Source: a phage. Taken from it: 285 nt of DNA. The notes under the pieces were generated by a model. The model was not told the origin of the DNA, did not search any database, and saw only the letters and a list, made by a program, of their open reading frames with translations. Position numbers and translations under genes: made by a program. Shown here piece after piece: positions 1 through 285 of this stretch. The DNA is taken from sequence record AF419419.1; one strand, given 5' to 3'. The number at the start of each line of letters is the position of its first letter. Positions within the stretch are counted from its first letter, which is position 1.

Positions 1-285
1 ATGGCTATGTCTAACATGACTTACAACAACGTTTTCGACCACGCTTACGAAATGCTGAAAGAAAACATCCGTTATGATAACATCCGTGACACTGATGACC
101 TGCACGATGCTATTCACATGGCTGCCGATAATGCAGTTCCGCACTACTACGCTGACATCTTTAGCGTAATGGCAAGTGAGGGCATTGATCTTGAGTTCGA
201 AGACTCTGGTCTGATGTCTGACACCAAGGACGTAATCCGCATCCTGCAAGTGCGTATCTATGAGCAATTAACGATTGATCTCTGG
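1..285 (+). CDS. ocr: Ocr anti-restriction protein (T7 gene 0.3 product; DNA mimic that inhibits type I restriction-modification enzymes); 3'-partial, first 95 codons, CDS continues beyond the window
   Basis: Seen in sequence: ATG at 1-3 and an uninterrupted frame-1 ORF to position 285; frame 2 stops at 17-19 (TGA) and frame 3 at 11-13 (TAA); the minus strand is interrupted by multiple stops. The translation matches the N-terminal ~95 residues of T7 Ocr as I recall them ([25 protein letters not shown]...IDLW). Composition is strongly acidic (13 Asp + 6 Glu versus 2 Lys + 4 Arg in 95 residues), as expected for a DNA-phosphate mimic. Codon usage (CGT, CTG, GAC, AAC) fits a highly expressed early coliphage gene. 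No alignment was run. Confidence 0.95.

Follow-up and report, generated by a model that had tools for sequence, protein, structure and literature searches.

A T7 gene 0.3 (ocr) fragment with five G:C->A:T transitions, probably from mutagenised laboratory phage

The window as the start of T7 gene 0.3

The window, by which we mean the whole stretch of 285 nt that was analysed, holds the beginning of T7 gene 0.3 (ocr), encoding a DNA-mimic anti-restriction protein. Ocr blocks type I restriction enzymes. In a megablast search, and again against the annotated reference, the window aligned without gaps to positions 925-1209 of the T7 genome V01146, in which gene 0.3 is annotated at 925-1278. The two sequences are identical at 280 of 285 nucleotides and at 92 of 95 residues, with the start codon and the frame unchanged. 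The translation of the window matches the Pfam family PF08684 ('DNA mimic ocr') with E = 2.3e-57 (192 bits, cut-off 25), and it also matches the solved Ocr structures 1S7Z and 2Y7C in the PDB (E of about 5e-58, 92 of 95 residues identical). An Rfam scan of the window returned no RNA family at E <= 1. The ocr reading frame is still open at the 3' end of the window and, because it leaves the window there, a list of open reading frames shows only two off-frame ones of 31 residues each. These two are chance occurrences, and ocr is the sole coding content of the window. In passing, we observed that ocr is labelled 'protein kinase' or 'receptor binding protein kinase' in MZ375235, OL964750, JB01, PHB19, PHB20 and other records, a label that evidently belongs to the neighbouring gene 0.7 and has been propagated in error.

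The original prediction, made from the letters of the window alone, had listed G79A, C217T and C251T as differences from T7, with C189T and C279T as possible additions, the last of them synonymous, and had named an alignment to T7 as the check. Compared base by base with V01146, the window is indeed not identical to the reference at these positions: there are exactly five differences, and they are the five listed, including the two offered with reserve. The features of the window are as follows.

1..285 (+): codons 1-95 of the 117 codons of T7 gene 0.3 (ocr)
79 (+): G79A, GAC->AAC, D27N (D26N in mature-protein numbering), with a T 5' of the mutated G
189 (+): C189T, GAC->GAT, synonymous at D63, in the 8-mer ATTGA[C]CT; creates a GATC at 187-190
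217 (+): C217T, CCT->TCT, P73S
251 (+): C251T, GCG->GTG, A84V
279 (+): C279T, GAC->GAT, synonymous at D93, in the second copy of ATTGA[C]CT; creates a GATC at 277-280

On the coding strand, four of the changes are C->T and one is G->A, so that all five run in the G:C->A:T direction; transversions and A:T->G:C changes are absent, just as had been predicted. Three are missense, two are synonymous and none creates a stop codon. Compared with wild-type T7, the encoded protein thus differs by D27N, P73S and A84V, and the two silent changes add two GATC sites. The density is 5 in 285 nt (1.75%), the other 280 bases being those of T7, and every T7 record found by megablast is at most 98.2% identical to the window.

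The 8-mer ATTGA[C]CT is repeated in the window, at positions 184-191 and 274-281, where it encodes Ile-Asp-Leu at codons 62-64 and 92-94, and in both copies it is the bracketed C that the synonymous changes hit. Under uniform targeting, this coincidence has a chance of about 3%, calculated post hoc, and the recurrence could reflect either a context hotspot or coincidence. The same two changes account for the gain of GATC sites. Among the 134 possible G:C->A:T changes in the stretch, 5 would create a GATC, and 2 of the 5 observed changes do so (post hoc p of about 0.01-0.03). From its base composition, wild-type T7 would be expected to have about 155 GATC sites; it has only 6, whereas the T7 isolates K and P, described below, contain 22 and 23, respectively. 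The gain in the window looks like an erosion of the GATC avoidance of T7, a by-product of mutagenesis in GGTC/GACC contexts.

Other T7 records vary in the same stretch. In GU071091, a T7 record, a C190A transversion (position 546 of that locus, position 190 of the window) adjoins site 189 and lies inside the ATTGACCT 8-mer. The heat-evolved clone T7_260S (MZ375284) has two missense transversions in ocr, namely T162G (F54L) and G181T (G61C). By an estimate from 8 of 60 sampled rows, some 20-25 other records, from the MZ3752xx series together with OL964749, have one change here; the ocr changes of that series may represent parallel change during the experiment concerned.

We also searched for the allele itself. 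Exact patterns spanning the variant bases had no match in viral, metagenome or genome contigs; megablast against plasmids and E. coli genomes gave no match; and megablast of short segments against phages found the variant bases in no record. At the protein level, D27N, P73S and A84V were looked up exactly in all seven combinations (each with the wild-type tail), as was the 95-residue fragment, and none of these was present, while the same look-up placed wild-type Ocr on 248 contigs. The allele is thus either unpublished, absent from the collections searched, or synthetic.

Polarity and strength of the transition bias

The direction of the changes was determined with 26 related loci taken from a viral collection. 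Relatives that are 86-93% identical to T7 have the T7 base at positions 79, 217, 251 and 279 and, in all but two of them, at position 189. Since the close relatives carry the T7 bases, the states seen in the window are derived, and the direction is truly G:C->A:T. At position 79, all close natural relatives have G and hence D, with N in 3 of 134 homologues. Positions 217 and 251 are likewise invariant in the correctly aligned natural DNA relatives, the former with C (P) down to about 60% identity and the latter with C (A); at the protein level, residue 73 is P in 125 of the 134 homologues and S in 4, and residue 84 is A in 128 and V in 4. The synonymous positions are less constant: T at 189 also occurs in three natural relatives, and T at 279 is found only in distant ones of about 65% identity. 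Overall, residues 27, 73 and 84 are conserved in 81%, 93% and 96% of the homologues, and N27, S73 and V84, which occur in 3-4 homologues each, are never found together in any close relative.

We then compared the window with natural variation of the same gene. Natural ocr alleles (JB01, phiA1122, 13a and others) have the same length and align to it without gaps, but they diverge by 3-14%, their spectrum is balanced and 72-100% of their changes are synonymous, whereas only 40% of the changes in the window are synonymous and all five belong to one class (5 G:C->A:T, 0 A:T->G:C, 0 transversions). Across 15 distinct relatives, which together provide 367 differing positions in the 285-nt stretch, differences from T7 comprise 35% G:C->A:T, 34% A:T->G:C and 31% transversions, and 72% of them are synonymous. 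Ten close natural pairs, with 8-12 differences each, showed a higher share of transitions (82%), and both directions were seen in every pair. The nearest natural relative, JB01, is 96.8% identical to T7 in this stretch, and its 9 differences, a mixture of 1 G:C->A:T, 4 A:T->G:C and 4 transversions, are without exception synonymous. The expectation that natural divergence between T7-like phages would be mixed and concentrated at synonymous sites was thus borne out, and the window has neither property. Identity to wild-type T7 sets it apart in the same way: in this stretch, 106 phage records reach 99% identity to T7 or more, and in the phage collection the interval of 95-99% holds only JB01 and the T7 isolates K and K115, with K and K115 alone at 97-99%.

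Five out of five changes in the G:C->A:T direction would be expected with a probability of 0.0056 under the spectrum of the 15 natural relatives, 0.012 under that of the close natural pairs (natural spectra overall giving about 0.005-0.02), and 9.5e-5 for uniformly random substitution. Under a mutagen spectrum of the kind described below the corresponding value is 0.93^5 = 0.70, which against 0.012 or 0.0056 gives a likelihood ratio of about 58-125. The one-directional spectrum is therefore beyond chance at a nominal level of significance, on five events only. The original prediction had called it suggestive and not significant; the caution about so few events was well placed, but the strength of the signal was somewhat understated, with p at about 0.005-0.02.

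Possible origins of the five transitions

For comparison with a T7 genome of altered spectrum, we used the T7 isolates K, K115, P and P82 (AY264775-AY264778) and the accompanying wild type, AY264774. The GenBank records AY264775 and AY264777 give 'isolate K' and 'isolate P' and do not state a mutagen treatment; we take K/K115 and P/P82 to be the mutagen-treated lines of Bull, Badgett, Rokyta and Molineux, T7 lines that were reportedly passaged with mutagen through bottlenecks (said to be described in J Mol Evol 57:241, 2003). Over the whole genome, K differs from AY264774 by 417 substitutions, 92.8% of which are G:C->A:T, and P by 307 substitutions, with 93.2% G:C->A:T. On average, 285 nt hold 3.0 substitutions in K and 2.2 in P, and stretches of that length with at least five make up 18% of the total in K and 6% in P. 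In the ocr stretch, K and K115 carry G37A, C66T, G121A, G220A and C225T, and P and P82 carry C5T and G252A, the latter adjoining window site 251; again, all of these are G:C->A:T.

The window resembles these isolates in its laboratory T7 backbone and in its near-exclusive G:C->A:T change (93% genome-wide in K and P), and isolate K matches it in density (5 in 285 nt) and in the 3:2 mix of missense and synonymous changes. Spectrum, density and mix all fall within the range of K and P. Chemical mutagenesis would be recognised by at least 90% G:C->A:T changes and a density of about 1% on an otherwise unchanged laboratory T7 backbone, and the window shows 5 of 5 and 1.75%. None of its five sites is mutated in K, K115, P or P82, and with no site in common the window must represent an independent lineage or event. 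Two further differences are that the signature is known genome-wide for K and P and from 285 nt alone for the window, and that 80-84% of the mutated Gs in K and P have a purine on their 5' side, against 3 of 5 in the window, where the comparison involves five events only. As a separate observation, 24 of the substitutions that separate K from AY264774 are found identically in P, which could be due to parallel adaptation, to mutational hotspots or to shared ancestry.

The reading we favour, with a probability of roughly 0.65, is G:C->A:T-specific mutagenesis, probably chemical, of the laboratory T7 lineage or clone from which the window derives, while ocr was unconstrained. What speaks against it is that the events number only five and that the allele turned up in none of the collections searched, where a record could have tied it to a mutagenesis experiment. 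The original prediction had held a one-directional spectrum to be more typical of deamination, chemical mutagenesis or deliberate alteration than of natural divergence, and this general point is supported by all three controls, namely the natural ocr alleles, the K and P isolates and the records at 97-99% identity.

Cytosine deamination instead of alkylation, whether by an APOBEC- or AID-type enzyme, a base editor or a deaminase-polymerase fusion, or as a thermal or transcription-associated process on the exposed non-template strand, is the leading alternative and still unlikely. It would fit the four consecutive C->T changes on the non-template (coding) strand within 91 nt (189-279), and a targeted process would raise the density locally while sparing the rest of the genome. 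However, with C->T and G->A at 4:1, the two types do not depart from an even 1:1 split (p = 0.375 in a two-sided binomial test, so lopsided a result arising by chance 37.5% of the time; the ratio is 191:196 in K and 159:127 in P). The mutated cytosines lie in the contexts gaC, tgC, agC and gaC and, on the other strand, gtC, and a TC, CC (3' C edited) or WRC motif fits at most 2 of the 5, so that the consistent motif of an APOBEC or AID enzyme is not seen in the window. Spontaneous deamination, judged by Drake's rule, is far too slow to produce 1.75% in laboratory time. Heat is reported to raise the frequency of G:C->A:T changes in phage T4 (PMC8923235), but the heat-evolved T7 clones of the phage collection carry 0-2 changes in this stretch, and the one inspected has two transversions. 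A variant of this idea would have an in vivo DNA cytosine deaminase, either a bacterial anti-phage enzyme or a host enzyme, hypermutate the first-entering, heavily transcribed left end of T7 on the exposed non-template strand of gene 0.3. The 4:1 excess of non-template C->T changes and the recurrence of ATTGA[C]CT would fit such a process but are far from demonstrating it, and we consider it the least probable reading of all.

It seems quite unlikely to us that the T7 sequence was altered on purpose, by design or in silico, for instance to make an engineered variant of ocr or a sequence for testing. The window begins exactly at the ATG and has a length of only 285 nt, D26N has been used in engineered Ocr charge mutants, and the allele was found in none of the public collections searched. 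Yet uniformly random in-silico substitution would hardly give five out of five, as calculated above, and neither P73S and A84V nor the two synonymous GAC->GAT changes have an evident design purpose. Moreover, published variants alter acidic clusters, whereas the window retains all other acidic residues, for example D13 and D26, and both new GATC sites read TGATCT, which to our knowledge is not one of the common 6-base cloning sites. It is very improbable that the changes arose in sequencing or from a damaged template (through bisulfite or enzymatic conversion, through deamination in ancient or FFPE material, or in the consensus of a damaged library), even though C->T and G->A changes are the classic damage signature. 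Bisulfite or enzymatic treatment would convert nearly all cytosines of one strand, and with 4 of 71 cytosines converted and a G->A change in the same molecule bisulfite is excluded; the end pattern of ancient DNA is reversed here, with the single G->A nearer the 5' side and the C->T changes nearer the 3' side, and no change falls within 5 nt of either end of the window. We would give equally little credence to natural divergence, that is, to a wild T7-like phage about 1.8% from T7. T189 and T279 are present in some natural relatives, and N27, S73 and V84 each in a few natural homologues, but this reading has to contend with the low probability of the spectrum, with the absence of any one-directional pair among the ten close natural pairs (0 of 10), with the mixed and wholly synonymous differences of JB01, with replacements at well-conserved residues that do not occur together in a close relative, and with the lack of a natural record at 97-99% identity in the phage collection.

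Two further candidates were tried and rejected. A host mutator background, which the original prediction had also listed, does not suit the spectrum: mismatch-repair defects cause transitions in both directions, mutT and mutY cause transversions, and T7 uses its own polymerase. Deamination at Dcm sites was dismissed as well, none of the C->T sites lying within CCWGG.

Under mutagenesis of laboratory T7, the reading we prefer, the source would be a T7 phage lineage or else an ocr fragment in a clone, and its DNA would have met a mutagen causing G:C->A:T changes almost exclusively. The likeliest agent would be an alkylator such as N-methyl-N'-nitro-N-nitrosoguanidine, which produces O6-methylguanine that pairs with T, or else hydroxylamine, which produces a modified cytosine that pairs with A. 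Lesions would arise on both strands and be fixed by replication, yielding the four C->T and the one G->A on the coding strand. Treatment of T7 with nitrosoguanidine or hydroxylamine is known to give predominantly G:C->A:T changes, at about 4-8 mutations per genome per treatment (PMC6042481). At that rate, a single heavy dose applied to whole phage would place at least five mutations in 285 nt with a probability of only about 1e-10 to 5e-9, and this regime was rejected. Since the density from a single round is far too low, serial or locally targeted mutagenesis is needed, and the 1.75% would presumably reflect either many mutagenic passages or mutagenesis aimed at an ocr fragment. As to the agent, the bases 5' of the mutated G are, in site order, T, G, G, C and G, i.e. 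a purine in 3 of 5 cases against a background of 51%. On these five events, the likelihood ratio of nitrosoguanidine to a context-free agent is about 0.6, and nitrosoguanidine is thus not favoured; five events are too few to name the agent.

Selection, protein function and meaning

The 134 possible G:C->A:T changes in the stretch comprise 51 synonymous, 79 missense and 4 stop changes. The observed 2 synonymous, 3 missense and 0 stop changes match unselected mutation, unlike natural divergence with its 72% of synonymous changes. This would be expected if hits in gene 0.3 were not filtered by selection and accumulated in the ratio in which mutation supplies them. Gene 0.3 is needed only against type I restriction, and standard propagation imposes none. 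From this aspect of T7 biology we infer that ocr drifts without selection in laboratory propagation.

The protein encoded by the window allele probably still works. The engineered Ocr proteins Mut1 and Mut2, in which D26N is combined with 4-5 other neutralised acidic residues, are fully active in vivo against EcoKI (PMC3439906). D26N corresponds to D27N of the window, and because Mut1 and Mut2 are active with it, D27N alone is probably silent. The likeness to the engineered charge mutants (D12N/D26N, Mut1 and Mut2; Roberts et al., 2012, NAR 40:8129, PMC3439906) is limited to this one residue. The engineered designs alter blocks of 5-17 acidic residues, whereas the window alters a single acidic residue, and P73S, A84V and the silent changes of the window occur in none of the designs in that paper.

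Both T7 ocr and the G:C->A:T signature left by nitrosoguanidine or hydroxylamine treatment are already documented, and the finding has little biological weight in itself. Were the source an unmanipulated phage population, so dense and one-directional a spectrum would be a sign of in vivo deamination by a process as yet unrecognised, and if the in vivo deaminase reading were true, we would be looking at hypermutation of a phage anti-defence gene and not at chemical treatment. The use of the finding is one of provenance: it marks the window as probable laboratory-mutagenised or otherwise artificially altered T7, as opposed to natural Ocr variation. Given such an artificial origin, it would be wrong to regard D27N, P73S and A84V as adaptations of an anti-defence protein.
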